A stretch of DNA of 63,822 nucleotides, filler included, from Psammoneis japonica (taxonomy: Eukaryota): the NCBI GenBank assembly GCA_008632985.1. It is 4 parts of 4 records of this genome, joined end to end, with 100 filler letters (N's around TTAATTAATTAA, not from the genome) between each part and the next. Parts side by side here need not be neighbours in the genome. Positions count along the whole stretch, not along the records: positions 60,286 to 63,822 come from QPGO01000575.1; 3 more parts are not named here. One strand, written 5' to 3'. Below, piece after piece: positions 41,209 through 63,822 of the stretch; the first letter of the stretch is position 1, and the number at the start of each line of letters is the position of its first letter. A program made the position numbers and the translations under genes. The notes beneath the pieces are model-generated. The model made no database searches and was not told the origin of the DNA. It saw only the letters and a program-made list of their open reading frames with translations.

Positions 41209-41862
41209 GTTTTCCTTGAAAACACATGTTTGTTTTCCTTGAAACGACATGTTTGTTGTCCTTGAAAAGACATTTTTTTCCCCCTTGAAATGACATGTTT
41301 GTTTTCCTTGAAATGACATGTTTGTTTTCCTTGAAATGACATGTTTGTTTTCAAGACATGTTTGTTTTCCTTGAAACGACATGTTTGTTTTCATTGAAAA
41401 GACATGTTTGTTTTCCCTGAAAAGACATGTTTGTTTTCCTTGAAACGACGCGATTGTTTTTCTTGAAATGACACATTTGTTTTCCTTGAAAAGACATGTT
41501 TGTTTTCCTTGAAAAGACATGTTTGTTTTCCTTGAAACCACATGTTTGTTTTCTTTGAAATGACACGTTTGTTTTGTTGAAAAGACATGTTTGTTTTCCT
41601 TGAAACGACACGTTTGTTTTCCTTGAAAAGACATGTTTGTTTTCCTTGAAACGAAATGTTTGTTTTCCTTGAAAAGACATGTTTGTTTTCCTTGAAACGA
41701 CACACTTGTTTTCCAGAAAAGACATGGTTGTTTTCATTGAAACCACATGTTTGTTTTCCTTGAAACGCCGCGTTTGTTTTCCTTGAAAAGACATTTTTTT
41801 CCCTTGAAGCGACATGTTTGTTTTCCTTGAAACGACATGTTTGTTTTCAAGACATGTTTGTT
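41209..41862 (-). repeat. 23-bp satellite array (short array also at 40585-40665)
   Basis: Unit GTTTCAAGGAAAACAAACATGTC on the - strand. Confidence 0.95.
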
Positions 41863-41919
41863 TGACCTTGACATTGAAGTCTTCTCTGCAGACAGGCCCA
41901 AGTCCCACTCTGGCACTCA

Positions 41920-42235
41920 ACTCACCTTGCGCGCGCAAAAGCACCCTGATTTTCAAGTCAGGGAAAACAACAGAGTGCGCGCTGTTGGGGTCAAACTGGC
42001 GAGGGGTGTCGTGGACAGTCAGCTCACTTGCTCACAGTTGGCTGGGGCACAGCAGGGTGTCAGTCATTCTTTCCCTGAAAAACACAGCCTTGTGGGCTGG
42101 CAGTGGGCGTGGCTGTCCATTGGCTGGATCAACCCACATGGCAGCAGCCACGCAAATGGGGACATTCCTCATTGGCGCGCACTCTTTGGAGCAAGGATGC
42201 ACTGCAGCAGCGTGGTTGCTGACAACAATTTGTTC
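41920..42235 (-). pseudogene. Diverged Copia protease-region fragment
   Basis: VHPCSKECAPMRNVPICVAAAMWVDPANGQP...TDTLLCPSQL parallels 44180-44460. Confidence 0.75.
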
Positions 42236-42606
42236 AATGTTGTGGAGAAAAATGGAGTGGCTGGCTGTCTCAACACGACCCAAATGACGGCTGCACTGTC
42301 GAACAGCAATGCTCCTCTCATTGTTGCTGGCCTGTTCCAGCTCCAGGTGCTCTGCTTTTCATCACGCGAGAGGCCGATTTTCTGCGCAGTTTGGCGCAAT
42401 TGACTCCTTCAATTTTGATCGTTTCGAAAATCGAAAGGTGAGTGTACACCCGAAAATGCATGCAAAGTGCACACTCACCCTTTGATTTGCCAAAAAACGG
42501 ATTTGGAAAAAGTCAATTGCGCCAAATGCACAAATTTCCAAATGATGGGAATCGAACCCGCGCGGAGCACCTGGAGCTGGAACAGGCCTGCTGTGAAAAG
42601 ATCAAG

Positions 42607-43260
42607 ATGTCGTCTCCAGCACCACCGGCAAAGAAGAGAAAGAAAAATGAGACTGTTGAGCCAATGAGCCTGAGACTTCAGGCAGTGTTGAAGAGAATGG
42701 GCACGCAGGCAGCGCATGGTGCGCTGAAACCAGAAGTGGAGAAGGTGGCTGGAAATGATCTCTTTTCACAGGTGAAGTTTCTCAGTCCATCAGAATTGGC
42801 AAGCAATGGGAGCGTCTCAATGTTTGTCAAGAAACAGATTGCTGGTGGCAACATGGACACTTCAAATTGGTCAGGAACTTGGGAGGAATGGGCAAAAGAG
42901 GCGGCAAAAAGGCAAGTTGACAATCTCAGAAACACGGTGTGTTCGGCTAAGGGGCGGAGGCAATGGCCCGCAAGTTGGGTGACCAATGTGTGTGACTCGA
43001 GAGTTGCGCGCATCTTGCAAGGAGATGACGGTGATGCTTTGTCTGTGCAGGCGTTGTCGCCAAGGAAGAGGGAAAGGAAAAAGAAAAGAAACTCAAGGCG
43101 GCAGTCAAGAGGAAAAAGCAAGGCAGGAAAAAGTCAAGCCGTGACAAGAACGAAAAGAAAGACACCCCGATTGTGCCGACATGGGATCCGCTTGGCCCAG
43201 ACACTGTCGCTGGCAGCAAACGAAGGAACAAGCAGGCATGCAAGTGGTTCTGTGATCACA
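42607..43260 (+). pseudogene. Homologue of the unknown protein at 21367-23960; deleted derivatives at 47400-48078, 54880-55558 (-) and 58798-59475 (-)
   Basis: EVEKVAGNDLFSQVKFL..ELASNGSVS..VKKQIAGGN...WSGTWEEWAK aligns by eye with EAEEVARKKLFPKAKFL..DMASSSKVS..IRKKMAGCN...WAGAWEDWAK. Confidence 0.65.
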
Positions 43261-44055
43261 CCCCTGTTTGCAAAAATTAACAAACCAAGGATTGTGCGGC
43301 AATGCAATCATGGATTGGCACATGGCAACAAGGTGGAGGCAGAAGTGGCGATGTGGGCACAGTGAAATGTGGCGCACATGATTCTCAACAAGTTGTCGCG
43401 ACATTGGCACAGCAAACTTGCAACCAGAGGTTGGCCTGTCATTGTGCGACAACAATTTTTTGCAACATTTTGACAAATTGCCATCATGCAAATCCACACA
43501 TTTTTGACGTTTCGTGCACTCTGATGTGTGTGTTGTGCACAGCATCATCGCACAGCATTTGTCCAACTCTCCCTCTCATCGCAGGATGGGTTGTCGCCAT
43601 GTGGTGCATCTGCACAGCGGACTTGCGAATTTGACCATGCACTCCCTCAGTGCCAGCAGGTTTGGCGACATTTGGTTCTGTGCCTTTCAGTGCTGGCGCA
43701 ACTGTTCATTCCTCATTCTGAGGTTTCTCATGTGCGCTGCATCCAAGCTGGGTGCCTGCATTGGCGGCAGGTTCATCAGGCTCGTCGGAGTCTTTCGGTG
43801 CATCAGCAGGTTGAGCAGCAGGCTCGGCAACAGCCGCTTTCTTTGCAGTGCGAGTTTCGGCATCAACCCACTCAGCTTCCAAGGACACAGCAGCAGCTTT
43901 GCATTTCTTTTTGGCCTTCTTGGCGTCGCGGAGCTTTTGGACTTGCTCTCACTCGGGACCATCAAGAGCACTCCGGTCGGAGATGCCCTTCAGAAAGTCA
44001 GAGACCTTCTTGGTCTCGGCCACCTGTTTGTTTGTCTGGGTGATTCTCAAAGGAT

Positions 44056-45549
44056 GTGCGTGTCTCTTTGTCATCTGCTGGAAATTCAGATGATGAAGCC
44101 ACCACTGATTTAGACTCGCACGCTGACACGTGTGCTGTTGGGTCCAATTTTGTGATGTGCTCTGACATCGACAGAACTGTCGTGGTGCACCCCCACTCCA
44201 AAGAGCACGCGCCAATGGAAAACACTCCTGTTTGCGCGGCTGCTGCCGTGTGGGTTGATCCAACTGATGGACAACCGTGCTTGCTGCCAGTCCACGAGGC
44301 CATGTTTTTTGGGGACAAGATGACCAACACCCTTCTGTGCCCCAACCAACTGCAAGCAAATGGGCTGATTGTCCACGACACCCCTTGCCAGTTTGACCCG
44401 ACTGGCGTGCACTCCATTGCTTTCCCTGACTTGAAGATCAGGGTGCCACTGCGAACAAGAGGCGTTGCTTCTGTCTTTGATTCACACGAGCCAACAAATG
44501 AGGATCTGGAGAACCTCCCCCGGCTGGAACTCACATCACCCCCGAGATGGGAGCCTTCTGCTGATGCCATGGCGCAAAAGGAGGAAGCGCGCGCATGTGC
44601 CAGTGTGCGCCAAGGATCAGCAAAGTCGGGCGGATGGTCGACGACAATGAATGTGACCAGGTGTGTTGCTTCCATTCACTCACACCAAATGTCCTGTCAT
44701 GACGAGAGCATCATTGTGGACACTGATGATGACAATTCATTGCATCGCCGCATGGTTGCTCAGGCGAATGTCTCCCACAACGACACTGAGGGAGACGGGC
44801 CACACGACCGGCATGACCTGGATGTCCACCTGGATTGTGCCGAGCGGAAACGGGTGCATGCACTGTCGACCTTGAGTCGCGCATCAACTGTCACACCCGA
44901 GACACTCTCTAAAAGGTGGAACATTGGCCTGACGGCTGCTGAGAACACCATCAGAGTGATGACCCAGGCAGGGGTCCGCAATGTCTGCACACCATCCGAA
45001 CGGAAAGTCCGGAAGAAAGCCCCTTGGCTCAAGTTCCCTGCTGTCAAGGGACGACTCTGCTCCGACCAGATGTTTTCAAAGGTCAAATCAACACATGGCA
45101 AGATGGGAGGAAGCGCACTTGCCAACGGAAGAGGGTGTGACAGGTTCCATCCTTGGAAGAGGAAACAGGACCACCCAGATGCCGTCATGTCATTTGTGCA
45201 TGACGTTGGCACACCGCAGGTCCTTGTGTCGGATGGCGCGCCGGAAATGGCGGAAGGCCAGACCAAGGAGATCTGCAAGGAATGCAGGATGCACCAGGAG
45301 GTGTCCACTCCATGCAGCCCCTGGCAGAACCTGGCCGAGGCATCCATTCGTGAGTTGAAGAAAAGAGTCCGTGTGACTCTGCGCTGGACTGGCGCTCACA
45401 GACGACTTTGGTCCCACAGCGCCAAATGGACATGTGACATCCGACGCATGATTGCAGCCAGTGTGTCAGACATGGGAGGACGAGTCCCAGAAGAGGAGGT
45501 GACAGGTTCAACACCCGACATCTCTTCCCTCTCTCTCTTTGATTGGTGA
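44056..45549 (+). pseudogene. Ty1/copia (diatom CoDi-like) pol fragment: protease and integrase
   Basis: DLDSHADTCAVGSN, LLCPNQL, TPETLSKRWNIGL, VHDVGTPQVLVSDGAPE, PCSPWQNLAEASIRELKK, TPDIS; 497 aa with no Tyr. Confidence 0.9.
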
Positions 45550-45809
45550 AAACAAACATGTCTTTTCAAGGAAAACAAACATGTCATTTCAAGGGGAAAA
45601 AATGTCTTTTCAAGGAAAACAAACATGTCGTTTCAAGGAAAACAAACACGTGTTTTCAAGGAAAACAAACATGTCTTTTCAATGAAAACAAACATGTCAT
45701 TTCAAGGAAAACAAACATGTCATTTCAAAGAAAACAAACACGTTGTTTCAGGGAAAACAAGCGTGTCATTTCAAGGAAAACAAACGTGTCTTTTCAAGGA
45801 AAACAAACA
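45547..45809 (+). repeat. 23-bp satellite array
   Basis: Same unit; abuts and truncates the Copia ORF. Confidence 0.95.
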
Positions 45810-46403
45810 CCCCACCTCAAACCAAGCAAAAGCAGGCATGGAGCAGCGCCGCCAAAACTTGCAGACAGGCTCAAGTCCCGCTCTGGCACTCAGCTCTCAG
45901 CTTGTGCTCCGCACAAAACCCTCAGACAATGCTTGGCTCCAACTGGCACCCAGAGGACTCAGTTGAAGAAACTCTGACACAAGAGCAACAGCTCTTTTCC
46001 TTTGATCTTGTTGACATGATCATGTGGAACCATGGAGATGCTGCCGTGCACGCCATCTCTCCTTGATGACCTGTGTTCTCCCTGGCTGGACCTTTCTCAC
46101 CAAACCGTTGCTCGCCGCTGAACAGAGAGCAGCGCGGTCACATTGTCAAATGTGGGCGCAGCTGAAACACAAATTGGCTCATCTTGTGTGGCCGCAAGGC
46201 TTGAGACCAAAAAAAAACCAAACCCCAATTTTAAGTGCCATTGCACCTTTGCCCAGCAACACCGGCGCCGGCCAACCCACACTTCCAGTGCACCCTGCGG
46301 AGGATGCGGCAGAAATGTGGTGCAGTTGGCCGGTTTTGGCGCCCCCATCAGAGGGCGCCCGGCGGAGACAGCTGCAAATGGCATGAGTGCCGCTTTTTGC
46401 CAG

Positions 46404-46668
46404 TCATTTGGCTTCTTTCAGGCTGTCTTTTAGTCTTGGACGGACCACAGAGATCCAGCTTTGGATCCTCGTTGTTGAAAATGACAGTTGTTCTTCGACC
46501 GAATCCAGCAATGCGCCTCTGTCCTTCGCCAAGCATTCTTGTCGTTTGTTGCATGTCGCCGTCAGCTTGGCTTCCGCCTTCCTCTGTTGAGATGATTTCC
46601 AAGAATCAACATCGTGCCCATGAACCAACTTGCTGTGCTCTTCCCAAAGTTCCCACCAGCACCTCTGC
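46404..46668 (-). pseudogene. Possible non-LTR retrotransposon ORF2 C-terminal fragment
   Basis: WQRCWWELWEEHSKLVHG resembles the W..LW..RN..VHG motif at LINE ORF2 ends; short match only. Confidence 0.35.
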
Positions 46669-49600
46669 CATGTTTGTTTTCCTTGAAACGACATGTTTGT
46701 TTTCACTGAAAAGACATGTTTGATTTCCTTGAAACGACATGTTTGTTTTCCTTGAAACCACATGTTTGTTTTCCTTGAAAAGACACGTTTGTTTTCCTTC
46801 AAACAACATGTTTGTTTTCCTTGAAATGGCGTGTTTGTTTTCCTTGAAAACACACAATTGTTTTCCTTGAAACAACATGATTGTTTTCCTTGAAATGGCA
46901 TGTTTGTTTTCTTTGAAACGACGTGTTTGTTTTCCTTGAAACGACATGTTTGTTTTCCTTGAAAAGACATGTTTGTTTTCTTTGAAACCACATGTTTGTT
47001 TTCCTTGAAACCACATGTTTGTTTTCCTTAAAATGACACGTTTGTTTTCCTTGAAACGACATGTTTGTTTTCATTTGTTTTCCTTGAATTGACATTTTTT
47101 TTGAAATGACACATTTGTCTTTCTTAAAACAACATGAGTTTGCCTTGAATTCTGCGCAAGAACGCACTGACGGAAGCAAACCAACATGATTCCATGTGCA
47201 GGAGAACAGCATCTGCACCCCACAAGAAGCTCACGCCTGTCCCCAAGTTCAGTTGGATCCACGAGACTGCAATGTGCAGCAATTTGTGGGGTTGATCCTC
47301 TCCCAGATGAAAGTGTGTGACACCTCTGGAATGCTTGAGCAGCACCCGCAATTGAGCAACTCCTCATTTGGTGTCTGGCAGTCAAAACCTGCCACCGCCA
47401 ATCCAGCACCACCGGCAAAGAAGAGAAAGAAAAATGAGACTGTTGAGCCACAAGAAGATGACGGTGATGCTTTGTCTGTGCAGGCGTTGTCGCCAAGGAA
47501 GAGGGAAAGGGAAAAAAAAAGAAACTCAAGGCGACAGTCAAGAGGAAAAAGCAAGGCAGGAAAAAGTCAAGCCGTGACAAGAACGAAAAGAAAGACGTCC
47601 CGATTGTGCCGACATGGGATCTGCTTGGCCCAGACACTGTCGCTGGCAGCAAACGAAGGAACAAGCAGGCACGCAAGTGGTTCTGTGATCACACCCCTGT
47701 TTGCAAAAATTGACAAACCAAGGATTGCACGGCAATGCAATCATGGATTGGCACATGGCAACAAGGTGGAGGCAGAAATGGCAATGTGGGCACAGTGAAA
47801 AATGGCGCACATGATTCTCAACAAGTTGTCGCGACATTGGCACAGCAAACTTGCAGCCAGAGGTTGGCCTGTCATTGTGCGACAACAATTTTTTGCAACA
47901 TTTTGACAAATTGCCATCATGCAAATCCACACATTTTTAACGTTTCGTGCACTCTGATGCCTGTGTTGTGCACAGCATCATCGCACAGCATTTGTCCAAC
48001 TCTCCCTCTCATCGCAGGATGGGTTGTCACCATGTGGTGCATCTGCACAGCGGACTTGCGAATTTGACCATGCACTCCCTCTGTCAGGCAGGATGGGTTG
48101 GTGCCATGTTTGTTTTCCTTGAAAAGACATGCTTGTTTCCTTAAAATGACACGCTTGTTTTCCCTGAAACGACATGTCTGTTTTCCTTGAAACCACATGT
48201 TTGTTTTCCTTGAAAACACATGTTTGTTTTCCTTGAAACGACATGTTTGTTTTCCTTGAAAAGACATGTTTGTGTTCAAGACATGCCTGTTTTCCTTGAA
48301 ACGACATGTTTGTTTTCACTGAAAAGACACGCTTGTTTTCCCTGAAAAGACATGTTTGTTTTCTTTGAAACGAAATGTTTGTTTTCCTTGAAAAGACATG
48401 TTTGTTTTCTTTGAAACCACATGTTTGTTTTCCTTGAAACGACATGTTTGTTTTCATTGAAAAGACATGTTTGATTTCCTTGAAAAGACATGTTTGTTTT
48501 CCTTGAAACCACATGTTTGTTTTCCTTAAAATGACACATTTGTTTTCCTTAAAACGACATGTTTGTTTTCATTAAAAAGACATGTTTGTTTCTTTGAAAC
48601 AAAATGTTTGTTTTCTTTGAAACGAAATGTTTGTTTTCCTTGAAAAGACATGTTTGTTTTCATTGAAACGACATGTTTGTTTTCATTGAAAAGACATGTT
48701 TGATTTCCTTGAAACGACATGTTTGTTTTCCTTGAAATGACGTGTTTATTTTCCTTGAAAAGACATGTTTGTTTTCATTGAAAAGACATGTTTGATTTCC
48801 TTGAAATGACATGTTTGTTTTCCTTGAAACCACGTGTTTGTTTTCCTTGAAAACACACATTTGTTTTCCTTGAAACAACATGTTTGTTTTCCTTGAAACC
48901 ACATGTTTGTTTTCCTTGAAATGACGCGTTTGTTTTCCTTGAAACAACATGTTTGTTTTCCTTGAAAAGACATGTTTGTTTTTCTTGAAATGACACGTTT
49001 GTTTTCTCTGAAAAGACATGTTTGTTTTCCTTGAAACAACATGTTTGTTTTCCTTGAAAAGACATGTTTGTTTTCCTCAAAAGACATGTTTGTTTTCCTT
49101 GAAATGACACGTTTGTTTTCCTTGAAACCACACGTTTGTTTTTCTTGAAATGACACCTTGGTTTTCTCTGAAAAGATGTGTTTGTTTTCCTTGAAACGAC
49201 ACGTTTGTTTTCCTTGAAAAGATGTGTTTGTTTTCTTTGAAACAACGTGTTTGTCTTTAAACGACATGTTTGTTTTCCCTGAAACGACACGTTTGTTTTC
49301 CTTGAAAAGACACGTTTGTTTTCCTTGAAAAGACATGTTTGTTTTCTTTGAAACGACACATTGTTTTTCTTGAAACGACATGTTTGTTTTCTCTGAAACC
49401 ACGTGTTTGTTTTCCCTGAAACAACACATTTGTTTTCCTTGAAAAGACATGTTTGTTTTCCTTGAAACGACACGTTTGTTTTCCTTGAAACGACACGTTT
49501 GTTTTCCTTGAAAAGACACGTTTGTTTTCCTTGAAAAGACATGTTTGTTTTCTTTGAAAAGACATGCTTGTTTTCCATGAAACGACGTGTTTGCTTTCCT

Positions 49601-49783
49601 GGAAACCACATGTTTATTTTCCTTGAAACACACATTTGTTTTCCTTGAAACAACACGTTTGTTTTCCTTGAAAAGACATGTTTGTTTTCCTTGAAACCAT
49701 GTGTTTGTTTTCCTTGAAACCGCGCGTTTGTTTCCTTGAAATGGCACGTTTGTTTTCCTTGAAAAGACATGTTTGTTTTCTTT
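46669..49783 (-). repeat. 23-bp satellite arrays 46669-47135 and 48105-49783
   Basis: Same unit; separated by a ~1-kb non-satellite block. Confidence 0.95.
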
Positions 49784-49785
49784 GA

Positions 49786-51392
49786 CTTCAAATCCTTGAG
49801 AGGAACCCATGATGCAGTCCCATCCTTCTGTTCGACTCGCAGGTCCCAGCCTGCAGTCGTCCTCCCAGGAGCGCGCCTGCCAGTCTTGGTCGTTGTGCAC
49901 CCGTCATTGGCCGTTGCAGCACGGTGCAATGTGCAGCTGCCAATGAGAGTTGATGCATCACGGCAACGTGCTGCAATTTGAATGTCACAAAGGTCGTGAC
50001 AAAAACAACCTTTTGTCTGCACGCATGCTGCATCATGAATTTTTGGCGGAGTGGCTCATCGCAACCATTGGGCAGGAGGCCAGGGGTTCGAAACCCTGAG
50101 CGGGAGTTGTCCGCAGCAACGTTGATCACTGTCGAACGCGCAAAACTCTGTGCAGTTCTGTGTGTTCCTTCGCACGCACCCACACTGTTCCACCAAAACT
50201 GTGCAGTGTCAGTGCACGTCAGCCAAGTGCCGCATGGACGCGCGACACATGGGGAGGAGTGCAGTGCGCAGCTGCTGACAAGAGCCAATGCATCACGGCG
50301 ACGTGCTGCAATTTAAATGCCACAAAGGTTGTGACAAAAACAACCTTTTGTCTGCATGCACACTGCAACGGGCATTGCGTCAGTGGCCAACTGTTTCCTT
50401 CATGATCTGGCGGGCATTCCCTTCAGAGTCGATCTGAGTGAATGGGTTGTCTGCAATTGTGTCAGCAGCATGGGAGTCGGTGGATCCGTCAGGGAATTCC
50501 ACGTCGCATGTCCTCAAGTTGTTTCCAGTGCCAACAGGAACCCCGTCACCATCTCACTTGTGTGCAATGACCCCAGCATGAGTCAGCTTGCCTCCTCGTG
50601 GTGACATGACTTGAGCTGCGAGACATTCATCCAGCCCTTCCAGGGTGTGCTCATCAGCTTCCGGTTTGGAAGCATCGGGTTCCACAGGTTCAACGGCATC
50701 ATCCCATTCATCCATGAAGTCGTCAGGGAGTTCAGGGAAGTCAGCGCTGGCATCCTTTTCCGGGATGCTGAGCCGTTTGATCAAAGCTTGGTCGACCGAT
50801 GCAAGATCCGTCTGGATCACCGGAGTTTTAAGGTCATCCTCTGGCATGGCCCACACATCCTTCCGAATGATGGGTTTGCCTGATTCGGGCAAAACAATGA
50901 ATGCCATTTCGTCAATGCAGTTGTCAGCTGTGCCAAGCCAACGGCCAACGCACTTTTTTTCGTGTGGGAACTCCGCCACAGGCACGCAGCAATGCACAGG
51001 TTGACGCCAATCAAAGAGAGAGAGGGAAGAGATGTCGGGTGTTGAACCTGTCACCTCTTCTGGGACTCGTCCTCCCATGTCTGACACACTGGCTGCAATC
51101 ATGCGTCGGATGTCACATGTCCATTTGGCGCTGTGGGACCAAAGTCGTCTGTGAGCGCCAGTCCGGCGCAGAGTCACACGGACTCTTTTCTTCAACTCAC
51201 AAATGGATGCCTCGGCCAGGTTCTGCCAGGGGCTGCATGGGGTGGACACCTCCTGGTGCATCCTGCATTCCCTGCAGATCTCCTTGGTCTGGCCTTCCAC
51301 CATTTCTGGCACGCCATCCGACACAAGGACATGCGGTGCGCCAACGTCATGCACAAATGACATGACGGCATCTGGGTGGTCCTGTTTCCTCT
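49786..51392 (-). pseudogene. Copia pol fragment (integrase C-terminal half and downstream region), interrupted by the TRIM; partial duplicates at 53316-53671 (-) and 56424-57085 (+)
   Basis: Near-identical to 45150-45545, continuing FPHEKKCVGRWLG...FPDGSTD..A.TIADN..QIDSEG...RTTAGWDLRVEQKDGTASWVPLKDLK. Confidence 0.88.
49925..50367 (+). mobile_element. TRIM-like element, copy 3, inserted in Copia pol
   Basis: TSD ACGG (49921-49924, 50368-50371); same LTR-core-PPT-LTR structure; removal restores the Copia frame RNAR|AATANDG. Confidence 0.9.
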
Positions 51393-54300
51393 TCCAAGGA
51401 AAAAAACATGTTGTTTCAAGGAAAACAAACGCGTCATTTTAAGGAAAACAAACATGTGGTTTCAAGGAAAACAAACATGTGGTTTCAAGAAAAACAAACA
51501 TGTCGTTTCAAGGAAAACAAACATGTCGTTTCAAGGAAATCAAACATGTCTTTTCAATGAAAACAAACATGTTGTTTCAAGGAAAACAATCATGTTGTTT
51601 CAAGGAAATCAAACATGTCTTTTCAGTTGAAACAAACATGTCGTTTCAAGGAAAACAAACATGTGGTTTCAAAGAAAACAAACATGTCTTTTCAAGGAAA
51701 ACAAACGTGTCTTTTCAAGGAAAACAAACATGTCGTTTCAAGGAAAACAAACGCGTCATTTCAAAGAAAACAAACATGTGGTTTCAAGGAAAACAAACAT
51801 GTTGTTTCAAGGAAAACAAATGTGTGTTTTCAAGGAAAACAAACACGTGGTTTCAAGGAAAACAAACATGTCATTTCAAGGAAATCAAACATGTCTTTTC
51901 AAGGAAAACAAACACGTCGTTTCAAGGAAAACAAACATGTCATTTCAAGGAAATCAAACATGTCTTTTCAATGAAAACAAACATGTCGTTTCAATGAAAA
52001 CAAACATGTCGTTTCAAAGAAAACAAACATGTCTTTTCAAGGAAAACAAACATTTCGTTTCAAAGAAAACAAACATGTCTTTTTAATGAAAACAAACATG
52101 TCGTTTCAAGGAAAACAAATGTGTCATTTTAAGGAAAACAAACATGTGGTTTCAAGGAAAACAAACATGTCGTTTCAAGGAAAACAAACACGCCATTTCA
52201 GAGAAAACAAATGTGTTGTTTCAAGGAAAAGAAATGTGTCTTTTCAAGGAAAACAAACATGTCGTTTCAAGGAAAACAAACATGTTGTTTCAAGGAAAAC
52301 AAGTGTGTCTTTTCAAGGAAAACAAACATGTTGTTTCAAGGAAAACAAACATGTCGTTTCAAGGAAATCAAACATGTCTTTTCAATGAAAACAAACATGT
52401 CGTTTCAAGGAAAATAAACACGTCGTTTCAAAGAAAACAAACATGCCAAGGAAAACAAACATGCCATTTCAAGGAAAACAAACATGTTGTTTCAAGGAAA
52501 ACAAATGTGTCTTTTCAAGGAAAACAAACATGTTGTTTCAAGGAAAACAAACATGTCGTTTCAAGGAAATCAAACATGTCTTTTCAATGAAAACAAACAT
52601 GTCATTTCAAGGAAAATAAAGACGTCGTTTCAAAGAAAACAAACATGCCATTTCAAGGAAAACAATCATGTTGTTTCAAGGAAAACAAATGTGTGTTTTC
52701 AAGGAAAACAAACGTGTGGTTTCCAGGAAAGCAAACATGTTGTTTCATGGAAAACAAGCATGTCTTTTCAAAGAAAACAAACATGTCTTTTCAAGGAAAA
52801 CAAACGTGTCTTTTCAAGGAAAACAAACATGTCGTTTCAAGGAAAACAAACGTGTCGTTTCAAGGAAAACAAACATGTCTTTTCAAGGAAAACAAATGTG
52901 TTGTTTCAGGGAAAACAAACACGTGGTTTCAGAGAAAACAAACATGTCTTTTCAAGGAAAACAAACATGTCGTTTCAAGAAAAACAAACGTGTCATTTCA
53001 AAGAAAACAAACATGTCTTTTCAAGGAAAACAAACGTGTCTTTTCAAGGAAAACAAACGTGTCGTTTCAGGGAAAACAAACATGTTGTTTAAAGACAAAC
53101 ACGTTGTTTCAAAGAAAACAAACACATCTTTTCAAGGAAAACAAACGTGTCGTTTCAAGGAAAACAAACACATCTTTTCAGAGAAAACCAAGGTGTCATT
53201 TCAAGAAAAACAAACGTGTGGTTTCAAGGAAAACAAACGTGTCATTTCAAGGAAAACAAACATGTCTTTTTGAGGAAAACAAACATGTCTTTTCAAGGAA
53301 AACAAACATGTCGTTGTGTTGAACCTGTCACCTCTTCTGGGACTCGTCCTCCCATGTCTGACACACTGGCTGCAATCATGCGTCTGATGTCACATGTCCA
53401 TTTGGCGCCATGGGACCAAAGTCGTCTGTGAGCGCCAGTCCGGCGCAGAGTCACACGGACTCTTTTCTTCAACTCACAAATGGATGCCTCGGCCAGGTTC
53501 TGCCAGGGGCTGCATGGGGTGGACACCTCCTGGTGCATCCTGCATTCCCTGCAGATCTCCTTGGTCTGGCCTTCCACCATTTCTGGCGCGCCATCCGACA
53601 CAAGGACCTGCGGTGCGCCAACGTCATGCACAAATGACATGACGGCATCTGGGTGGTCCTGTTTCCTCTTCCAAGGAAAAAAACATGTTGTTTCAAGGAA
53701 AACAAACGCGTCATTTTAAGGAAAACAAACATGTGGTTTCAAGGAAAACAAACATGTGGTTTCAAGAAAAACAAACATGTCGTTTCAAGGAAAACAAACA
53801 TGTCGTTTCAAGGAAATCAAACATGTCTTTTCAATGAAAACAAACATGTTGTTTCAAGGAAAACAATCATGTTGTTTCAAGGAAATCAAACATGTCTTTT
53901 CAGTTGAAACAAACATGTCGTTTCAAGGAAAACAAACATGTGGTTTCAAAGAAAACAAACCTGTCTTTTCAAGGAAAACAAGCGTGTCTTTTCAAGGAAA
54001 ACAAACATGTTGTTTCAAGGAAAACAAACGTGTCATTTCAAGGAAAACAAACATGTGGTTTCAAGGAAAACAAACATGTTGTTTCAAGGAAAACAAATGT
54101 GTGTTTTCAAGGAAAACAAACACATGGTTTCAAGGAAAACAAACATGTCATTTCAAGGAAATCAAACATGTCTTTTCAATGAAAACAAACATGTCTTTTC
54201 AAGGAAAATAAACACGTCATTTCAAGGAAAACAAACATGTCGTTTCAAGGAAATCAAACATGTCTTTTCAATGAAAACAAACATGTCGTTTCAATGAAAA

Positions 54301-57300
54301 CAAACATGTCTTTTCAAGGAAAACAAACATTTCGTTTCAAAGAAAACAAACATTTTGTTTCAAAGAAAACAAACATGTCTTTTTAATGAAAACAAACATG
54401 TCGTTTTAAGGAAAACAAATGTGTCATTTTAAGGAAAACAAACATGTGGTTCAAGGAAAACAAACATGTCGTTTCAAGGAAATCAAACATGTCTTTTCAA
54501 TGAAAACAAACATGTCGTTTCAAGGAAAACAAACATGTGGTTTCAAAGAAAACAAACATGTCTTTTCAAGGAAAACAAACATTTCGTTTCAAAGAAAACA
54601 AACATGTCTTTTCAGGGAAAACAAGCGTGTCTTTTCAGTGAAAACAAACATGTCGTTTCAAGGAAAACAGGCATGTCTTGAACACAAACATGTCTTTTCA
54701 AGGAAAACAAACATGTCGTTTCAAGGAAAACAAACATGTGTTTTCAAGGAAAACAAACATGTGGTTTCAAGGAAAACAGACATGTCGTTTCAGGGAAAAC
54801 AAGCGTGTCATTTTAAGGAAAACAAGCATGTCTTTTCAAGGAAAACAAACATGGCACCAACCCATCCTGCCTGACAGAGGGAGTGCATGGTCAAATTCGC
54901 AAGTCCGCTGTGCAGATGCACCACATGGTGACAACCCATCCTGCGATGAGAGGGAGAGTTGGACAAATGCTGTGCGATGATGCTGTGCACAACACAGGCA
55001 TCAGAGTGCACGAAACGTTAAAAATGTGTGGATTTGCATGATGGCAATTTGTCAAAATGTTGCAAAAAATTGTTGTCGCACAATGACAGGCCAACCTCTG
55101 GCTGCAAGTTTGCTGTGCCAATGTCGCGACAACTTGTTGAGAATCATGTGCGCCATTTTTCACTGTGCCCACATTGCCATTTCTGCCTCCACCTTGTTGC
55201 CATGTGCCAATCCATGATTGCATTGCCGTGCAATCCTTGGTTTGTCAATTTTTGCAAACAGGGGTGTGATCACAGAACCACTTGCGTGCCTGCTTGTTCC
55301 TTCGTTTGCTGCCAGCGACAGTGTCTGGGCCAAGCAGATCCCATGTCGGCACAATCGGGACGTCTTTCTTTTCGTTCTTGTCACGGCTTGACTTTTTCCT
55401 GCCTTGCTTTTTCCTCTTGACTGTCGCCTTGAGTTTCTTTTTTTTTCCCTTTCCCTCTTCCTTGGCAACAACGCCTGCACAGACAAAGCATCACCGTCAT
55501 CTTCTTGTGGCTCAACAGTCTCATTTTTCTTTCTCTTCTTTGCCGGTGGTGCTGGATTGGCGGTGGCAGGTTTTGACTGCCAGACACCAAATGAGGAGTT
55601 GCTCAATTGCGGGTGCTGCTCAAGCATTCCAGAGGTGTCACACACTTTCATCTGGGAGAGGATCAACCCCACAAATTGCTGCACATTGCAGTCTCGTGGA
55701 TCCAACTGAACTTGGGGACAGGCATGAGCTTCTTGTGGGGTGCAGATGCTGTTCTCCTGCACATGGAATCATGTTGGTTTGCTTCCGTCAGTGCGTTCTT
55801 GCGCAGAATTCAAGGCAAACTCATGTTGTTTTAAGAAAGACAAACGTGTCATTTCAAAAAAAATGTCAATTCAAGGAAAACAAATGAAAACAAACATGTT
55901 GTTTCAAGGAAAACAAATGTGTCTTTTCAAGGAAAACAAACATGTTGTTTCAAGGAAAACAAACATGTCGTTTCAAGGAAATCAAACATGTCTTTTCAAT
56001 GAAAACAAACATGTCATTTCAAGGAAAACAAAGACGTCGTTTCAAAGAAAACAAACATGCCATTTCAAGGAAAACAATCATGTTGTTTCAAGGAAAACAA
56101 ATGTGTGTTTTCAAGGAAAACAAACATGTCGTTTCAAGGAAAACAAACGCGCCATTTCAAGGAAAACAAACATGTTGTTTCAAGGAAAACAAATGTGTCT
56201 TTTCAAGGAAAACAAACATGTGGTTTCAAGGAAAACAAACATGTTGTTTCAAGGAAATCAAACATGTCTTTTCGGTGAAAACAAACATGTTGTTTCAAGG
56301 AAAACAAACATGGCAGAGGTGCTGGTGGGAACTTTGGGAAGAGCACAGCAAGTTGGTTCATGGGCACGATGTTGATTCTTGGAAATTGTCTCAACAGAGG
56401 AAGGCGGAAGCCAAGCTGACGGCCCCATTCACTCAGATCGACTCTGAAGGGAATGCCCGCCAGATCATGAAGGAAACAGTTGGCCACTGACGCAATGCCC
56501 GTTGCAGTGTGCATGCAGACAAAAGGTTGTTTTTGTCACAACCTTTGTGGCATTTAAATTGCAGCACGTCGCCGTGATGCATTGGCTCTTGTCAGCAGCT
56601 GCGCACTGCACTCATCCCCATGTGTCGCGCGTCCATGCGGCACTTGGCTGACGTGCACTGACACTGCACAGTTTTGGTGGAACAGTGTGGGTGCGTGCGA
56701 AGGAACACACAGAACTGCACAGAGTTTTGCACGTTCGACAGTGATCAACGTTGCTGCGGACAACTCCCGCTCAGGGTTTCGAACCCCTGGCCTCCTGCCC
56801 AATGGTTGCGATGAGCCACTCCGCCAAAAATTCATGATGCAGCATGCGTGCAGACAAAAGGTTGTTTTTGTCACGACCTTTGTGACATTCAAATTGCAGC
56901 ACGTTGCCGTGATGCATCAACTCTCATTGGCAGCTGCACATTGCACCGTGCTGCAACGGCCAATGACGGGTGCACAACGACCAAGACTGGCAGGCGCGCT
57001 CCTGGGAGGACGACTGCAGGCTGGGACCTGCGAGTCGAACAGAAGGATGGGACTGCATCATGGGTTCCTCTCAAGGATTTGAAGTCAAAGAAAACAAACA
57101 TGTCTTTTCAAGGAAAACAAACGTGCCATTTCAAGGAAAACAAACGCGCGGTTTCAAGGAAAACAAACACATGGTTTCAAGGAAAACAAACATGTCTTTT
57201 CAAGGAAAACAAACGTGTTGTTTCAAGGAAAACAAATGTGTGTTTTCAAGGAAAATAAACATGTGGTTTCCAGGAAAGCAAACACGTCGTTTCATGGAAA

Positions 57301-60185
57301 ACAAGCATGTCTTTTCAAAGAAAACAAACATGTCTTTTCAAGGAAAACAAACGTGTCTTTTCAAGGAAAACAAACGTGTCGTTTCAAGGAAAACAAACGT
57401 GTCGTTTCAAGGAAAACAAACATGTCTTTTCAAGGAAAACAAATGTGTTGTTTCAGGGAAAACAAACACGTGGTTTCAGAGAAAACAAACATGTCGTTTC
57501 AAGAAAAACAAATGTGTCGTTTCAAAGAAAACAAACATGTCTTTTCAAGGAAAACAAACGTGTCTTTTCAAGGAAAACAAACGTGTCGTTTCAGGGAAAA
57601 CAAACATGTCGTTTAAAGACAAACACGTTGTTTCAAAGAAAACAAACACATCTTTTCAAGGAAAACAAACGTGTCGTTTCAAGGAAAACAAACACATCTT
57701 TTCAGAGAAAACCAAGGTGTCATTTCAAGAAAAACAAACGTGTGGTTTCAAGGAAAACAAACGTGTCATTTCAAGGAAAACAAACATGTCTTTTTGAGGA
57801 AAACAAACATGTCTTTTCAAGGAAAACAAACATGTTGTTTCAAGGAAAACAAACATGTCTTTTCAGAGAAAACAAACGTGTCATTTCAAGAAAAACAAAC
57901 ATGTCTTTTCAAGGAAAACAAACATGTTGTTTCAAGGAAAACAAACGCGTCATTTCAAGGAAAACAAACATGTGGTTTCAAGGAAAACAAACATGTTGTT
58001 TCAAGGAAAACAAATGTGTGTTTTCAAGGAAAACAAACACGTGGTTTCAAGGAAAACAAACATGTCATTTCAAGGAAATCAAACATGTCTTTTCAATGAA
58101 AACAAACATGTCTTTTCAAGGAAAATAAACACGTCATTTCAAGGAAAACAAACATGTCGTTTCAAGGAAATCAAACATGTCTTTTCAATGAAAACAAACA
58201 TGTCGTTTCAATGAAAACAAACATGTCTTTTCAAGGAAAACAAACATTTCGTTTCAAAGAAAACAAACATTTTGTTTCAAAGAAAACAAACATGTCTTTT
58301 TAATGAAAACAAACATGTCGTTTTAAGGAAAACAAATGTGTCATTTTAAGGAAAACAAACATGTGGTTTCAAGGAAAACAAACATGTCTTTTCAAGGAAA
58401 TCAAACATGTCTTTTCAATGAAAACAAACATGTCGTTTCAAGGAAAACAAACATGTGGTTTCAAAGAAAACAAACATGTCTTTTCAAGGAAAACAAACAT
58501 TTCGTTTCAAAGAAAACAAACATGTCTTTTCAGGGAAAACAAGCGTGTCTTTTCAGTGAAAACAAACATGTCGTTTCAAGGAAAACAGGCATGTCTTGAA
58601 CACAAACATGTCTTTTCAAGGAAAACAAACATGTCGTTTCAAGGAAAACAAACATGTGTTTTCAAGGAAAACAAACATGTGGTTTCAAGGAAAACAGACA
58701 TGTCGTTTCAGGGAAAACAAGCGTGTCATTTTAAGGAAAACAAGCATGTCTTTTCAAGGAAAACAAACATGGCACCAACCCATCCTGCCTGACAGAGGGA
58801 GTGCATGGTCAAATTCGCAAGTCCGCTGTGCAGATGCACCACATGGTGACAACCCATCCTGCGATGAGAGGGAGAGTTGGACAAATGCTGTGCGATGATG
58901 CTGTGCACAACACAGGCATCAGAGTGCACGAAACGTTAAAAATGTGTGGATTTGCATGATGGCAATTTGTCAAAATGTTGCAAAAATTGTTGTCGCACAA
59001 TGACAGGCCAACCTCTGGCTGCAAGTTTGCTGTGCCAATGTCACGACAACTTGTTGAGAATCATGTGCGCCATTTTTCACTGTGCCCACATTGCCATTTC
59101 TGCCTCCACCTTGTTGCCATGTGCCAATCCATGATTGCATTGCCGTGCAATCCTTGGTTTGTCAATTTTTGCAAACAGGGGTGTGATCACAGAACCACTT
59201 GCGTGCCTGCTTGTTCCTTCGTTTGCTGCCAGCGACAGTGTCTGGGCCAAGCAGATCCCATGTCGGCACAATCGGGACGTCTTTCTTTTCGTTCTTGTCA
59301 CGGCTTGACTTTTTCCTGCCTTGCTTTTTCCTCTTGACTGTCGCCTTGAGTTTCTTTTTTTTTCCTTTCCCTCTTCCTTGGCGACAACGCCTGCACAGAC
59401 AAAGCATCACCGTCATCTTCTTGTGGCTCAACAGTCTCATTTTTCTTTCTCTTCTTTGCCGGTGGTGCTGGATTGGCGGTGGCAGGTTTTGACTGCCAGA
59501 CACCAAATGAGGAGTTGCTCAATTGCGGGTGCTGCTCAAGCATTCCAGAGGTGTCACACACTTTCATCTGGGAGAGGATCAACCCCACAAATTGCTGCAC
59601 ATTGCAGTCTCGTGGATCCAACTGAACTTGGGGACAGGCGTGAGCTTCTTGTGGGGTGCAGATGCTGTTCTCCTGCACATGGAATCATGTTGGTTTGGCT
59701 TCCGTCAGTGCGTTCTTGCGCAGAATTCAAGGCAAACTCATGTTGTTTTAAGAAAGACAAACGTGTCATTTCAAAAAAATGTCAATTCAAGGAAAACAAA
59801 TGAAAACAAACATGTTGTTTCAAGGAAAACAAATGTGTCTTTTCAAGGAAAACAAACATGTTGTTTCAAGGAAAACAAACATGTCGTTTCAAGGAAATCA
59901 AACATGTCTTTTCAATGAAAACAAACATGTCATTTCAAGGAAAACAAAGACGTCGTTTCAAAGAAAACAAAACATGCCATTTCAAGGAAAACAATCATGT
60001 TGTTTCAAGGAAAACAAATGTGTTTTTCAAGGAAAACAAACATGTTGTTTCAAGGAAAACAAACGCGCCATTTCAAGGAAAACAAACATGTTGTTTCAAG
60101 GAAAACAAATGTGTCTTTTCAAGGAAAACAAACATGTGGTTTCAAGGAAAACAAACATGTTGTTTCAAGGAATTCAAACATGTCT
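51393..60185 (+). repeat. 23-bp satellite arrays 51393-53312, 53672-54852, 55822-56311, 57084-58771, 59740-60185
   Basis: Same unit, interleaved with duplicated transposon fragments. Confidence 0.95.
56503..56945 (-). mobile_element. TRIM-like element, copy 4 (inverted duplicate of copy 3)
   Basis: TSD CCGT; flanks identical to copy 3. Confidence 0.88.
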
Positions 60186-60285
60186 NNNNNNNNNNNNNNN
60201 NNNNNNNNNNNNNNNNNNNNNNNNNNNNNTTAATTAATTAANNNNNNNNNNNNNNNNNNNNNNNNNNNNNNNNNNNNNNNNNNNN
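60186..60285. other. Artificial contig linker
   Basis: Identical 100-nt linker. Confidence 0.98.
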
Positions 60286-63101
60286 CAAGCTCAAGTTGGT
60301 GCTCACAAGAGAAATGTGCTTCAACAAAAGCACCATTGAGGCACAAAGTGTTGAAGAGTCAAAACCAGCTCTCCACTTGCCATCACCTGGAAGTCCAAAG
60401 AAGCTCAACTTTTTGGTGTTCACAAATGACTTTGCTGCAGCTGTTTGTGCCTGACCACTGCTTTGTTGACAACCTGTGCATGCAACCACATGTCTGCTGC
60501 TTTGCCAATGGGCTTGTCAGAAAACAGATGGTGCCCTCTTGGTGTGAGCCAATGACAAAAAAATTAGACATGACAGCAAGAGCTCTCTTTTTGCACAGGC
60601 ATGATGAGTGCTGCTTTTGCATGTGCTCAACATTGCAAGGAAGCAGCAAGAGCAAAGAGCACAGTCACAAGCTGCATGAGTTGGTTGATGCATGCAGCCA
60701 GAGTGGGTCAAGAAAAGAATGTGGACCAATTGAGTGGTGCAACCAGAGCCAGCATCATCATTTCCCCCCAAGAACAACACTTGTCACCAGGTCTTGTCAG
60801 TTTTTGCCAGTGCATGAGATTGAATGACTCTGGTGCACCAAACAGGCAAATGTGACTGTGGAAATCTGCACCCACCTGGTGCACAAAACTGATCAAGCTG
60901 AAAATGCTTGTTCTTTTCCCACTTGTCTTTCAGCTTTGCAGGCTGCAAAGTTTCAAGCCAGTGAGAGTGCTGAAGGCATTGATTTGGGAGCCACAGCTTT
61001 CCACATGGTGGCATTGAAGCAGCACTTAAAATGTTCACATCAGGGGTGGTGTCTTCCAAAAAAAGATCTTTGGGGTGAGTTGAGACTGCAGCTGTTGGCT
61101 GCAGTGCTTCAACAGTGCAGACCTCTGGGGCATGCCAGTTGTCAGCATGTGGACCAGGTTCAAAGATGGGCCATTGTGCTCTTCACAGCAGCACATTGGA
61201 GGTGAGGCTTGTGTCCAAGGACAAAGCAGCCGGGTTGAACAAAGGACTGGCAGTGCTGGCACAGCAGCACAAGAACACCCAAGCACTGTCTGCACAAGGT
61301 GTTTTAAGGCCAGGAGAGGAGGCATGGCAGAGGCACCACTCTGCTGGCAGCAGCAGCAGCATTCTTCACAGCAGATGCAGCCAACAGCATCATTGCTCAC
61401 AAGGATTTTTTGCTCTCCTCAGTTAGAGATTTGTGTGCAGGAGAGTTGTCAAGATGGGTTTGAGGCACACCAAAAAAATGACTTGCCCCAGTTGAAAAGG
61501 GCAAAGCTTTCTGTGTGTCATGCAGAAAATGTGATGTGAGTGTTGACACAAGCTGGGCGGCATCATGACCTTGGTTTTGGCTTGCATGTGTCCATGCCTG
61601 CCCTGCAGGTGGAACATGCATGGGGTTCAGCACTGATTTTTCTTTGAAAGGGCATCAACTTTTGCTGGCACAAAACTCACATTTCCAGCACACAAACATG
61701 CACACTTGTCTTCAAGCATTTTGTTCTCACACTTTGTTGGAAATGTCTCCTGGTGCAAATGCCAAGAATGTGCCAAAAGCTCAAAAAAGTGAGGAACAGC
61801 ACCACCATGAAGTGCATTTTCATGGTGCTGGTTGAAAAGATCTTTGTTGTTGCAATGGCTCAAATGACAGAGTTGTTGCACAACACATTTCAAACAAATT
61901 GAGTGCAGGAAAGCAATGACCACTGGCAAAACAGAGTCATGGCTGCTGGCAAAATGGATGTCAGCACTGGCCTGCCAGCAGCTTTCTAGTTTCTGTGTGT
62001 GCAGCTGGCACAAACAGCCAGCAGCAGCCACACATGCTGTGTGCACCACCAGCCAAGCTCTGCCAGTGGCTTCCACTGTGTGACACCACACCAAGTTTAG
62101 GTGCTCTGCCTTGAGTTCATTGGGGTTGTCCTCCCTGACCAGATTGCTTGGCCAAATGGCACAAGAACCTCCTGTCAATGAGAGGCCTGCAGTTGGCATG
62201 CTCCACTGCAGCTGCAATGTGATGAGAGGTGGGTGACCAACAGGCTCTCAATGATCATGTGGTTGCCTGTTGCAGCCAATTGCCTTTGTTGCATCATTGT
62301 TGTTCTGTTGGCTCAGGCTGCTGTTGTCAAAATGCAGCAACTCACACCATTTGCTTGCGAAAACACCAATGTTGCAATGAGAGGACCCCCCCGAGTGCCC
62401 ACAGTGGCATGAGAAATCTGGTGCCAACCAGACAGCTCAGAGCAAAATAAAAGAGGTACAAACAAAGGGAGAAAGTCCTGCTGTTGAACTGTGATTTGCA
62501 TCAGAAGTCATTGCATGAATCAGAAGAGTTAAGAAGCACACAAATGAAGATTCAAAATGTGACGCTCTCGGACTGTCGGACACGTTACAAACGACAAAAC
62601 GGGCGTAATTCGTGTCGACTCTGAATGCATGAGCAGGTTCCACTCTACTCTAGAGAGCGCACCTCTAGAGCTAGCTAGCTTCGAGATACGGTGCAGTAGA
62701 GTAGAGACGTTCCTTCTATGAACGAGACGCACTTTTACCTCCTGGACTAAGATATAATGTATGCCAGAATCGATGTAAGCTACTCTCCAAGAGAGCGATA
62801 AGAGGCACGCTCGTTGAACAGATGCGCGGGGTACAATTTAGATAGAGATTTGCAGCCAATCCAACGTAGCTTTGGCAGAGTCGAAAATTTCAGTGTCGTA
62901 GGCCCTTGGCATAGGGCCCTAACAAAGTGCCGAATAAATCCAAAATTTCAGGTGTGGTAGCCTTCTACTCTAGTAGTAGTACATTTCCCGCAGCGACTCT
63001 CGGCAGCCTTCGCCACATTGGGTCGAGTTTTCGAGTGAAAGCACCATAAACAAAGAGAGTTTCTGCCTTTGAGGCATTCATTCGTTGTCTCCTGGCACAC
63101 A

Positions 63102-63822
63102 ATGGTGAAGCCACGAAAGTTCATTCTTCCTCAGTGCCAGGACAAAGAGCAACGGGAAATAGCGGAGAATCTGTTGGAATGGGGTATCGATGAGTTCAAC
63201 GGAGACCGAGACCATCGGGATTTTGGAGCTCTCTATCGCTCATTGATACGAAAGGCTCAAGCAGGATTGGTAGACGAGATGTTGCACGATCCTCAGATGC
63301 TTCCAGCGGATGCGTTAGAGGCGGTAAGGATTGTACTTCGAAGCACAATCCAAGAGAGCACTCGGCACCGCGTACTCGATGATTCTATCTCTGGTGAGAG
63401 CTGGGCTCCATATAACGTCTATCCTTCACGCTTTGCGGACGAAAAGGACGTTGTCTTTGTGAAGCAACGTTGGGAGTTCGACAGGCTCTCCCGGTTGGAT
63501 CTTGATCCGTTGAATCGATTCACAATGGAACAAACAACGAAGCGAGAGTACTTCTTCTCTTGGGCGATGGCTCCAGAGGACAATTCTATCAAAGGTCTTG
63601 TCTTTGAGGCACTCCTTGCGTCCCATGCGATTCACAATGTGGCGTGCTTTCACTGCTACGGACGCAAGTGCTTTCGTTGGAACGGAGGCCACAAAGTTTC
63701 TTGGGCCGATCTAGTTTGTATCCATTGCGATAGTACTTACGAGATCAAATCCAAGCACGACATGGAATCCATTGAAAGATCCAATGAGTACAAACTCAGA
63801 GGCGGTGATTTCAAGAATTATT
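63102..63822 (+). CDS. Intact ORF (at least 240 aa, runs off the window) with a DpnI/Dam-replacing-protein-like zinc-binding PD-(D/E)XK nuclease motif
   Basis: My translation MVKPRKFILP... has no stop to the window end and normal Tyr, TA and CG content. It contains GLVFE-x12-CFHC-x16-ADLVCIHCDSTYEIKSK-x15-GGDF. It is absent from the ORF track because it has no stop codon in the window. Confidence 0.7.
   Translation, partial: MVKPRKFILPQCQDKEQREIAENLLEWGIDEFNGDRDHRDFGALYRSLIRKAQAGLVDEMLHDPQMLPADALEAVRIVLRSTIQESTRHRVLDDSISGESWAPYNVYPSRFADEKDVVFVKQRWEFDRLSRLDLDPLNRFTMEQTTKREYFFSWAMAPEDNSIKGLVFEALLASHAIHNVACFHCYGRKCFRWNGGHKVSWADLVCIHCDSTYEIKSKHDMESIERSNEYKLRGGDFKNY

Follow-up and report, generated by a model that had tools for sequence, protein, structure and literature searches.

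A sharp edge of TpA- and CpG-depleted DNA upstream of a conserved gene in Psammoneis japonica

We analysed a stretch of 63,822 nucleotides from Psammoneis japonica (NCBI GenBank assembly GCA_008632985.1), hereafter the window, in which an earlier note made from the sequence had pointed to a sharp boundary between hypermutated and normal DNA upstream of an intact gene. This site is likely to be a real edge of a mutational domain from which the dinucleotides TpA and CpG (TA and CG in the counts below) have been erased. To its left, 60286-62439 (2154 bp) retains 6 TA and 4 CG against 260 TG and 271 CA (531 TG or CA), in keeping with the handful that the note had seen by eye, and to its right 62563-63822 contains 57 TA and 76 CG. 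Past the depleted stretch, CpG reappears at 62563 and dense TA sets in at 62646, which agrees with the places where the note had put their return (~62560 and ~62645). The ATG of the gene stands at 63102, 457 bp beyond the start of dense TA, where ~450 bp had been estimated.

Position and sharpness of the border

To locate the edge, each of the 857 pyrimidine-purine (YR) steps in 60286-63822 was classed as TA or CG on the one hand or as TG or CA on the other. The best change point falls at 62560/62563, with a 2-log-likelihood support interval of 62521-62563, and TA and CG together account for 2.3% of the YR steps to its left and for 45.9% to its right. Its log-likelihood ratio of 129 is reached by 0 of 2000 permutations, and the boundary is thus as sharp as had been claimed. 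The GC content (0.481 on the left and 0.482 on the right) and the share of YR steps (~24% and ~23%) match on both sides, and the split of these steps among TA, CG, TG and CA alone shifts. This is the pattern expected of transitions that turn TA and CG into TG and CA, and it upholds the view that the signature is limited to a domain rather than being a general compositional bias.

When scored alone, the TA edge is loose (best 62443/62448, support 62410-62586) and the CG edge is tight (best 62560/62563, support 62539-62563). The transition zone between the two (62440-62562, 123 bp) has 3 TA, 0 CG and 23 TG or CA; the probability of finding at least 3 TA at the depleted rate is 0.005, and that of finding 0 CG at the normal rate is 0.0006. 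TA may be back in this zone while CpG is still absent, which would offset the two edges by ~120 bp. The edge is at most ~120 bp wide, and hence narrower than a nucleosome repeat. Such sharpness fits a border fixed by a sequence or by the end of an element at least as well as it fits a diffuse chromatin border, and a breakpoint or a bound factor could likewise account for it; the chromatin border proposed in the earlier note stands as a hypothesis.

Beyond the edge, 62563-63101 is non-coding DNA of normal composition, in which TA and CG account for 66 of the 128 YR steps (9 CpG lie in 62563-62617), as against 67 of 162 in the coding region that follows. These counts bear on the alternative that mutation occurs everywhere and that purifying selection holds TA and CG in the gene and its promoter alone. 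The normal DNA does coincide with an intact conserved gene, but selection cannot keep each site of 540 bp of upstream non-coding DNA that is at full TA and CG density, and the fall of TA and CG from 46% to 2% of the YR steps takes place within ~40-120 bp. We therefore regard selection as a very improbable explanation of the border.

Scans of the window for Rfam families and tRNAs returned no match, which provides no tRNA or RNA gene as a barrier at the border. The similarity of the normal segment to the rest of the window is limited to a 13-bp motif, CTCTACTCTAGAG. This motif (core TCTACTCTAG) is present at 4264-4276, 62643-62655 and 62964-62973 and inverted near 62697-62709, the copies of the core in the upstream normal DNA lying at 62644 and 62964, with the inverted copy near 62697. 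A total of 4 matches, against 0.02 expected, is obtained when one mismatch is tolerated. The sites are shared between the normal DNA upstream of the gene and the sole sizeable TA-retaining island of the first piece of the window (see below), and the motif could represent a putative protein-binding or promoter element in DNA that escapes erasure.

The window consists of four pieces separated by identical artificial joints of 100 bases each (20063-20162, 40170-40269 and 60186-60285), which are made up of 44 N, TTAATTAATTAA and a further 44 N. From the lengths of the pieces (20062 > 20007 > 19916, with the last at least 3537 bp) we infer that it is a size-sorted concatenation of separate contigs, and adjacency across the joints accordingly carries no meaning. 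The earlier description of the boundary as lying within one contig does not apply to the window as a whole, but it does apply to the border itself, which is inside the single N-free fourth piece (60286-63822, from QPGO01000575.1).

The note had also suggested verifying that long reads span the junction. A contig of 1324 letters from sequencing run X1 bridges it: it covers 61754-63077 with 0 differences to the window, and the word depth in this run is ~33-37 on both sides of the border, with 30 of 30 bins covered evenly. This run is possibly the assembly's own sample, in which case the bridging contig is not independent support. The junction is nevertheless genuine in the reads, and both a scaffolding misjoin and a consensus of noisy reads are ruled out. 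In run X2 (same sample, low depth) contigs are found only over 62828-63822, and run X3 yielded none; the lack of cover over the erased part constitutes no evidence.

These data also allow us to weigh an artefact, be it a misjoin of unrelated sequences or a modified base at TpA and CpG that was consistently miscalled, for instance in error-prone long reads. The window is indeed built of contigs concatenated via artificial linkers, and misreading on either strand would also yield the CA/TG discordance between repeats and the tyrosine codons read as His or Cys that are described in the next section. Yet the linkers lie away from the border, and the exact and even match of the k-mer contig at ~33x is unlike what noisy reads or a misjoin would give. 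Furthermore, a modified base with the pairing of G or C would turn into a mutation within one round of replication, and no stable modification would remain. This signature also arises de novo in Illumina-sequenced lines of the alga Bigelowiella natans, according to the main text of a preprint (bioRxiv 10.64898/2026.01.13.699255). Hence, an artefact is very improbable as well.

Extent and mutational origin of the TpA loss

The earlier note had delimited the depleted stretch as 60286-62440. The depletion there is confirmed but its confinement to this stretch is not, since TA observed/expected (o/e) ratios of 0.03-0.08 prevail over all of 1-62555. Piece 1 (1-20062) has a TA o/e of 0.08, a CG o/e of 0.33 and TG and CA o/e of ~1.7, and it contains a hAT-like transposase remnant along with three small TA-bearing islands. 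Piece 2 (20163-40169; TA o/e 0.04, CG o/e 0.58) contains dispersed repeats and is devoid of protein-family signal, and piece 3 (40270-60185; TA o/e 0.03, CG o/e 0.68) is composed of arrays of a 23-bp satellite interleaved with copia-like fragments. The fourth depleted stretch, adjoining the border, has a TA o/e of 0.06 and a CG o/e of 0.03; its segment 60286-62439 is at single-copy depth, matches none of the other pieces and shows no recognisable coding content. Across the four stretches TG and CA o/e lie at 1.6-2.0, as against a TA o/e of 0.67 and TG and CA o/e of ~1.0 in 62556-63822. As few as 209 TA are left in the ~62.3 kb of 1-62555. A two-state hidden Markov model contrasting TA with TG and CA recovers the three islands (4104-4340, 8172-8203 and 14634-14728) and a normal domain from 62448 on.

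Residual TA and residual CG are uncorrelated (Spearman rho 0.02, P = 0.75; 248 sub-windows of 250 bp), which indicates that the loss of TpA and the loss of CpG are two separate processes. At equilibrium, the ratio (TG+CA)/(2 x TA) of 12865/418 implies that TpA loss proceeds at least ~30 times as fast as TpA creation. The TA that remain are unevenly distributed with respect to their flanks: they account for 72 of the 1247 YR steps in the T_A context (TTAA), 40 of 1422 in C_A/T_G, 1 of 1735 in A_C/G_T and 0 of 1288 in A_T (ATAT). This dependence could reflect either the preference of an enzyme or the context of newly created TAs.

A few further features of composition deserve mention. Outside the satellite, the index (TG-CA)/(TG+CA) is close to 0 for most 1-kb bins, with exceptions that include 2001-4000 (-0.29/-0.40), where CA is locally in strong excess over TG, and 45001-46000 (-0.23). 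In the erased domain the AT o/e is 0.63-0.87 and the GC o/e reaches 1.46. Of the 355 satellite monomers, 85 have A>G at position 15 and 40 have T>C at position 16, frequent changes that create CpG. Together with the AC/GT differences between paralogues given below, these values may point to a second, weaker A:T to G:C effect in this domain, acting on ApT. We also looked for a periodicity of residual CpG, with the idea of nucleosome-linker methylation in mind, and no peak above random was seen between 50 and 400 bp.

Comparison of paralogous repeats within the erased DNA provides a view of the changes that have accumulated in it. Fifteen repeat pairs show 701 transitions against 126 transversions, and among adjacent double differences CA opposite TG leads with 144 cases, ahead of AC opposite GT with 25. 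Aligned paralogues also have 193 sites with CG opposite TG or CA. Over 16 pairs we counted 123 sites discordant for CA and TG, against 29.7 predicted by CpG decay alone, this prediction being derived from the CG/CG and CG/decayed counts of each of the 15 pairs that allow an estimate, with one rate per pair. The excess fits an ancestral TpA that was converted independently in each copy, and the mutation of the older repeats is shown to be later than their duplication. Conversely, repeat pairs that are ~97% identical have 0-1 such discordances, which implies that some duplications are later than the erasure. The converted sites form no same-strand runs: 49 of 108 neighbouring pairs are on the same strand, a value reached by 4444 of 5000 shuffles, showing that each site takes its strand independently of those next to it. 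The satellite, whose largest array spans 51395-54853 (consensus CAAGGAAAACAAACATGTCGTTT), displays comparable variation, in that three YR positions of its 355 monomers vary among CA, TG and CG and are never TA. Piece 3 as a whole is a mosaic of inverted blocks, among which 46712-50446 and 56424-60185 form a 3.7-kb inverted duplication of 98.5% identity that includes satellite arrays and copia-like fragments.

The direction of change can be read from the transposon remnants. The hAT-like remnant (4342-5991, minus strand) contains an open reading frame (ORF; 4342-5748) with 17 homologues (best E-value 6e-106), one of which has the domain PF04937, a hAT-associated family. At seven columns with a conserved tyrosine its codons are CAC, CAC, TGC, TAC, CTG, CTC and TTT. 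The remnant of a copia-type polyprotein (44026-45690, plus strand; the protease-integrase portion) contains an ORF (44044-45546) with 3543 homologues at E-values of at most 0.001; three ~1360-residue homologues were scanned, all of which match RVT_2, two of them above the Pfam cutoff. This ORF has 0 Tyr, and at eight columns where the majority of its homologues have tyrosine it reads CAC, TGG, CAC, TGC, CAT, TGC, CAC and CTC. Taken together, the 15 conserved tyrosine columns of both ORFs thus show CAY six times, TGC three times, TGG and TAC once each and other codons four times. Other conserved residues are mostly retained (W 6/6, N 5/5, P 18/20, G 17/18 and D 14/15). In the gene to the right of the border, which serves as a control, Tyr is kept at three of the six columns where it occurs in at least two of the three homologues, the others being F, F and W. 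The erasure is therefore mutation, in the direction from TA to CA or TG, and the turning of conserved Tyr codons into CAY or TGC, along with the predominance of transitions and of CA/TG differences between paralogues, makes the term hypermutated an apt one.

The same evidence speaks to the proposal that this DNA never had TA to begin with, for example by having grown from TA-free simple repeats. The consensus of the 23-bp satellite does lack TA, and CAG/CTG-like runs occur in 60286-62440. Against this, the transposon ORFs have thousands of homologues and tyrosine codons that were turned into CAY or TGC, the share of YR steps equals that of normal DNA, and no tandem repeat was reported at a score of at least 100 in 60286-62555. 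A primary composition of this kind is thus extremely improbable.

With regard to the origin of the targets, pieces 1 and 3 contain the hAT-like and copia-like remnants, which mark the DNA as eukaryotic, and the satellites, whereas piece 2 and the 2.2 kb at the border have no recognisable origin. Additional copia-like fragments lie at 50329-51630 (minus strand), 41744-42343, 49666-49980 and 53209-53820 (all minus strand) and 56863-57177 (plus strand). A search of 156 ORFs of the erased DNA against Pfam gave no match at an E-value of at most 0.001, and two of these ORFs are transposon-derived according to homology searches. Being devoid of TAA and TAG, the erased DNA has longer ORFs, whose translations lack Tyr and abound in Cys, His and Gln; the long ORFs of three regions each exceed those of 100 of 100 dinucleotide-preserving shuffles. 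Metagenomic loci with relatives of the hAT-like ORF have TA o/e values of 0.40-0.81, with 0 of 80 being erased (80 of 117 confirmed loci). The largest TA-keeping island (4104-4340, 237 bp), which has 10 TA and 9 CG and contains CTCTACTCTAGAG, starts directly past the stop of the hAT-like ORF, and thus presents a second sharp edge on a small scale.

The gene beyond the border and the age of the junction

The conserved intact ORF to the right of the border (63102-63821, plus strand) is open at the 3' end of the window, and its 240 residues include 8 Tyr. Two word-index searches of a collection of 5.8 billion proteins recovered three homologous clusters (P0002, P0003 and P0001) at identities of 52%, 40% and 33%, with P0002 being the 52% match (E-value 2e-67). 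The family has an invariant D203-x10-E214-x-K216 motif, four invariant cysteines and a WNGG signature. Its match to the Pfam model of DpnI (PF06044) is weak (E-value 0.0046; 17.1 bits, under the cutoff of 26.7). DpnI is a methyl-adenine-dependent nuclease. A profile search of PDB sequences gave 0 matches, a scan of viral contigs found no match, the best score in a protein atlas (0.88) is below the usable level, and a structure model with a pLDDT (predicted local distance difference test) score of 42.7 is unusable. We offer a putative PD-(D/E)XK nuclease as a lead only.

The gene is a member of a small family: one variant contig departs from it by 21 differences over 63105-63318 and another by 10 differences over 63296-63436, both at comparable depth. 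At least two diverged paralogues are present in the same read set, with the similarity beginning at ~63100, i.e. the start codon. This raises the alternative that the border is a junction of ages, at which an insertion, segmental duplication or rearrangement placed the gene with its upstream 540 bp beside DNA whose hypermutation was already complete. If so, the sharpness would reflect a breakpoint and not a maintained barrier, and the transition of at most ~120 bp is indeed as sharp as a breakpoint. The membership of the gene in a small family, with two variant contigs at similar depth, and the ~97% identical duplicates with 0-1 CA/TG discordances, by which TpA loss precedes some rearrangements, are likewise in favour of such a junction. 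However, the similarity among the paralogues starts from ~63100 (with loose ends at 63100 and 63133) and not at 62563, which places the upstream 540 bp outside any repeated mobile unit. Terminal repeats or a target duplication are not evident at the edge, and the possible return of TA and CG at separate positions is not predicted by a single breakpoint. The far end of the normal segment is outside the window. We consider this alternative a live one but unlikely, and it would in any event be compatible with a mutational reading of the left side.

Candidate mechanism and its relation to known systems

If the flagged site is an edge of a mutational domain, two processes would be at work to its left. 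The first, which would be near saturation, converts TpA to TpG or CpA, such that the A of TpA, whichever strand it is on, undergoes an A:T to G:C change. The second would be an independent and variable decay of CpG to TpG or CpA. The domain on which they act would comprise dead copia-like and hAT-like transposons, dispersed repeats, the 23-bp satellite and the single-copy DNA adjacent to the border, and both would end within ~120 bp, with 540 bp of ordinary upstream DNA and the intact conserved gene beyond.

Full-text searches of the literature for a TpA signature yielded a single match, a preprint of 2026 on B. natans (bioRxiv 10.64898/2026.01.13.699255). According to its main text, 231 of the 302 nuclear point mutations in mutation-accumulation lines fell in two integrated viral regions. 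Nearly all of those in the viral regions were A-to-G or T-to-C, all of these being on TpA and giving TpG or CpA, and the TpA rate was ~6e-7 per site per generation in some lines only, a de novo rate ~1000-fold over background being characteristic of this system. The same text describes 124 genomic clusters that are depleted in TpA and enriched in CpA and TpG, as well as 324 coding sequences with a mean TpA frequency of 0.0018, among which reverse-transcriptase and DDE domains are enriched. Its authors propose an ADAT2-like deamination of adenine that is guided by RNA or by an epigenetic mark (bioRxiv 10.64898/2026.01.13.699255).

The erased DNA of the window resembles the system so described in several respects. 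In both, TpA is the target on either strand and is turned into TpG or CpA; the process is confined to domains and hits single-copy DNA as well; and a long-term depletion of TpA with enrichment of CpA and TpG is seen, which in B. natans extends to the coding sequences with reverse-transcriptase and DDE domains. There are also clear differences from the published description. The window is near-saturated over contigs of ~20 kb (TA o/e 0.03-0.08), as against a rho of 0.45 reported for a nucleocytoplasmic large DNA virus region in the preprint, and its affected DNA includes a satellite together with copia-like and hAT-like remnants. It adds a strong and uncorrelated loss of CpG and a border placed to within ~120 bp or less, and the words CpG, boundary, satellite and heterochromatin do not occur in the main text of the preprint (bioRxiv 10.64898/2026.01.13.699255).

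Three other mutational systems invite comparison. The repeat-induced point mutation (RIP) of fungi turns CpA into TpA on duplicated sequence and raises its AT content. The likeness lies in context-specific transitions that ruin repeated or selfish DNA in delimited domains near intact genes, with copies mutating independently. The direction, however, is the opposite, as TpA is removed here and GC is unchanged across the border, and single-copy DNA is hit, 60286-62555 being at the depth of the unique flank and having no match elsewhere in the window. RIP was rejected on these grounds, namely the near absence of TpA, the equal GC on both sides and the affected single-copy DNA, the last as judged from depth and from comparison within the window. 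The decay of CpG by way of 5-methylcytosine shares with the present case the depletion of CG (o/e 0.03-0.68, depending on the segment), the excess of TG and CA and the satellite monomers that vary among CG, TG and CA. It cannot remove TpA, and the CpG loss seen here is uncorrelated with residual TpA. ADAR enzymes favour a U on the 5' side of the A that they edit, and copies that have been hyperedited become fixed in genomes, as is also cited in the Discussion of the preprint. Single-strand editing of retroelement intermediates by ADAR or APOBEC would give strand-asymmetric runs, whereas here TG is about equal to CA and the strands are independent, and satellites and the remnants of a DNA transposon are affected too. 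We accordingly set aside RNA-level ADAR hyperediting fixed by retrotransposition, with both strands being equally affected, same-strand runs being absent and satellites and a DNA transposon being among the targets.

By analogy, the TpA process is probably of the same kind as the one measured directly in B. natans, where foreign or selfish DNA is hypermutated in a locally targeted manner. At the level of the enzyme, we tentatively suggest that adenine in TpA would be deaminated on double-stranded DNA to inosine, which is read as G. The domain so targeted would be set by a silencing mark or a guide RNA and would end at the border, and the loss of CpG would be explained most simply by the deamination of 5-methylcytosine in the same silent domain. 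A broader and more speculative proposal, which we lean towards doubting as a whole, is that the window presents a second case, and one that has gone much further, of a genome defence dedicated to editing the adenine of TpA in double-stranded DNA, possibly in a lineage distinct from the chlorarachniophyte of the preprint. Such a defence would involve complete TpA loss in transposons, satellites and adjacent single-copy DNA, borders below the size of a nucleosome and an independent CpG decay whose border is offset by ~120 bp.

Several points weigh against the interpretation of the site as the edge of a targeted mutational domain. The window has one extended normal domain and hence a single border, and the bridge provided by run X1 may leave room for a systematic effect at the level of the reads. 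The offset of the CG edge from the TA edge is based on 3 TA and 0 CG in 123 bp, and variation from site to site in the rate of CpG decay could inflate the CA/TG discordance of the repeats. Finally, no transposon or viral content can be recognised in the 2.2 kb at the border, such that the label of foreign or selfish DNA is extrapolated to it from the other three pieces.

A TpA-directed A:T to G:C hypermutation runs in the opposite direction to fungal RIP, and the precedent that we found for it, in the preprint text cited above, is from a single alga. The window displays the end state of such a process, with tens of kilobases nearly devoid of TpA, and shows that satellites and DNA transposons are hit besides retroelements and that CpG decay is a process of its own. 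TpA-free DNA also confounds annotation, as tyrosines and TAA or TAG stops vanish, ORFs lengthen and Pfam misses ORFs with 17 and 3543 homologues. One border, resolved to ~120 bp or less beside an intact gene, constitutes a natural test site for what delimits the process. If a dedicated TpA-editing defence does exist, the borders of silent domains would be readable from sequence, and the contrast between ATAT (0/1288) and TTAA (72/1247) would be the footprint of its enzyme.

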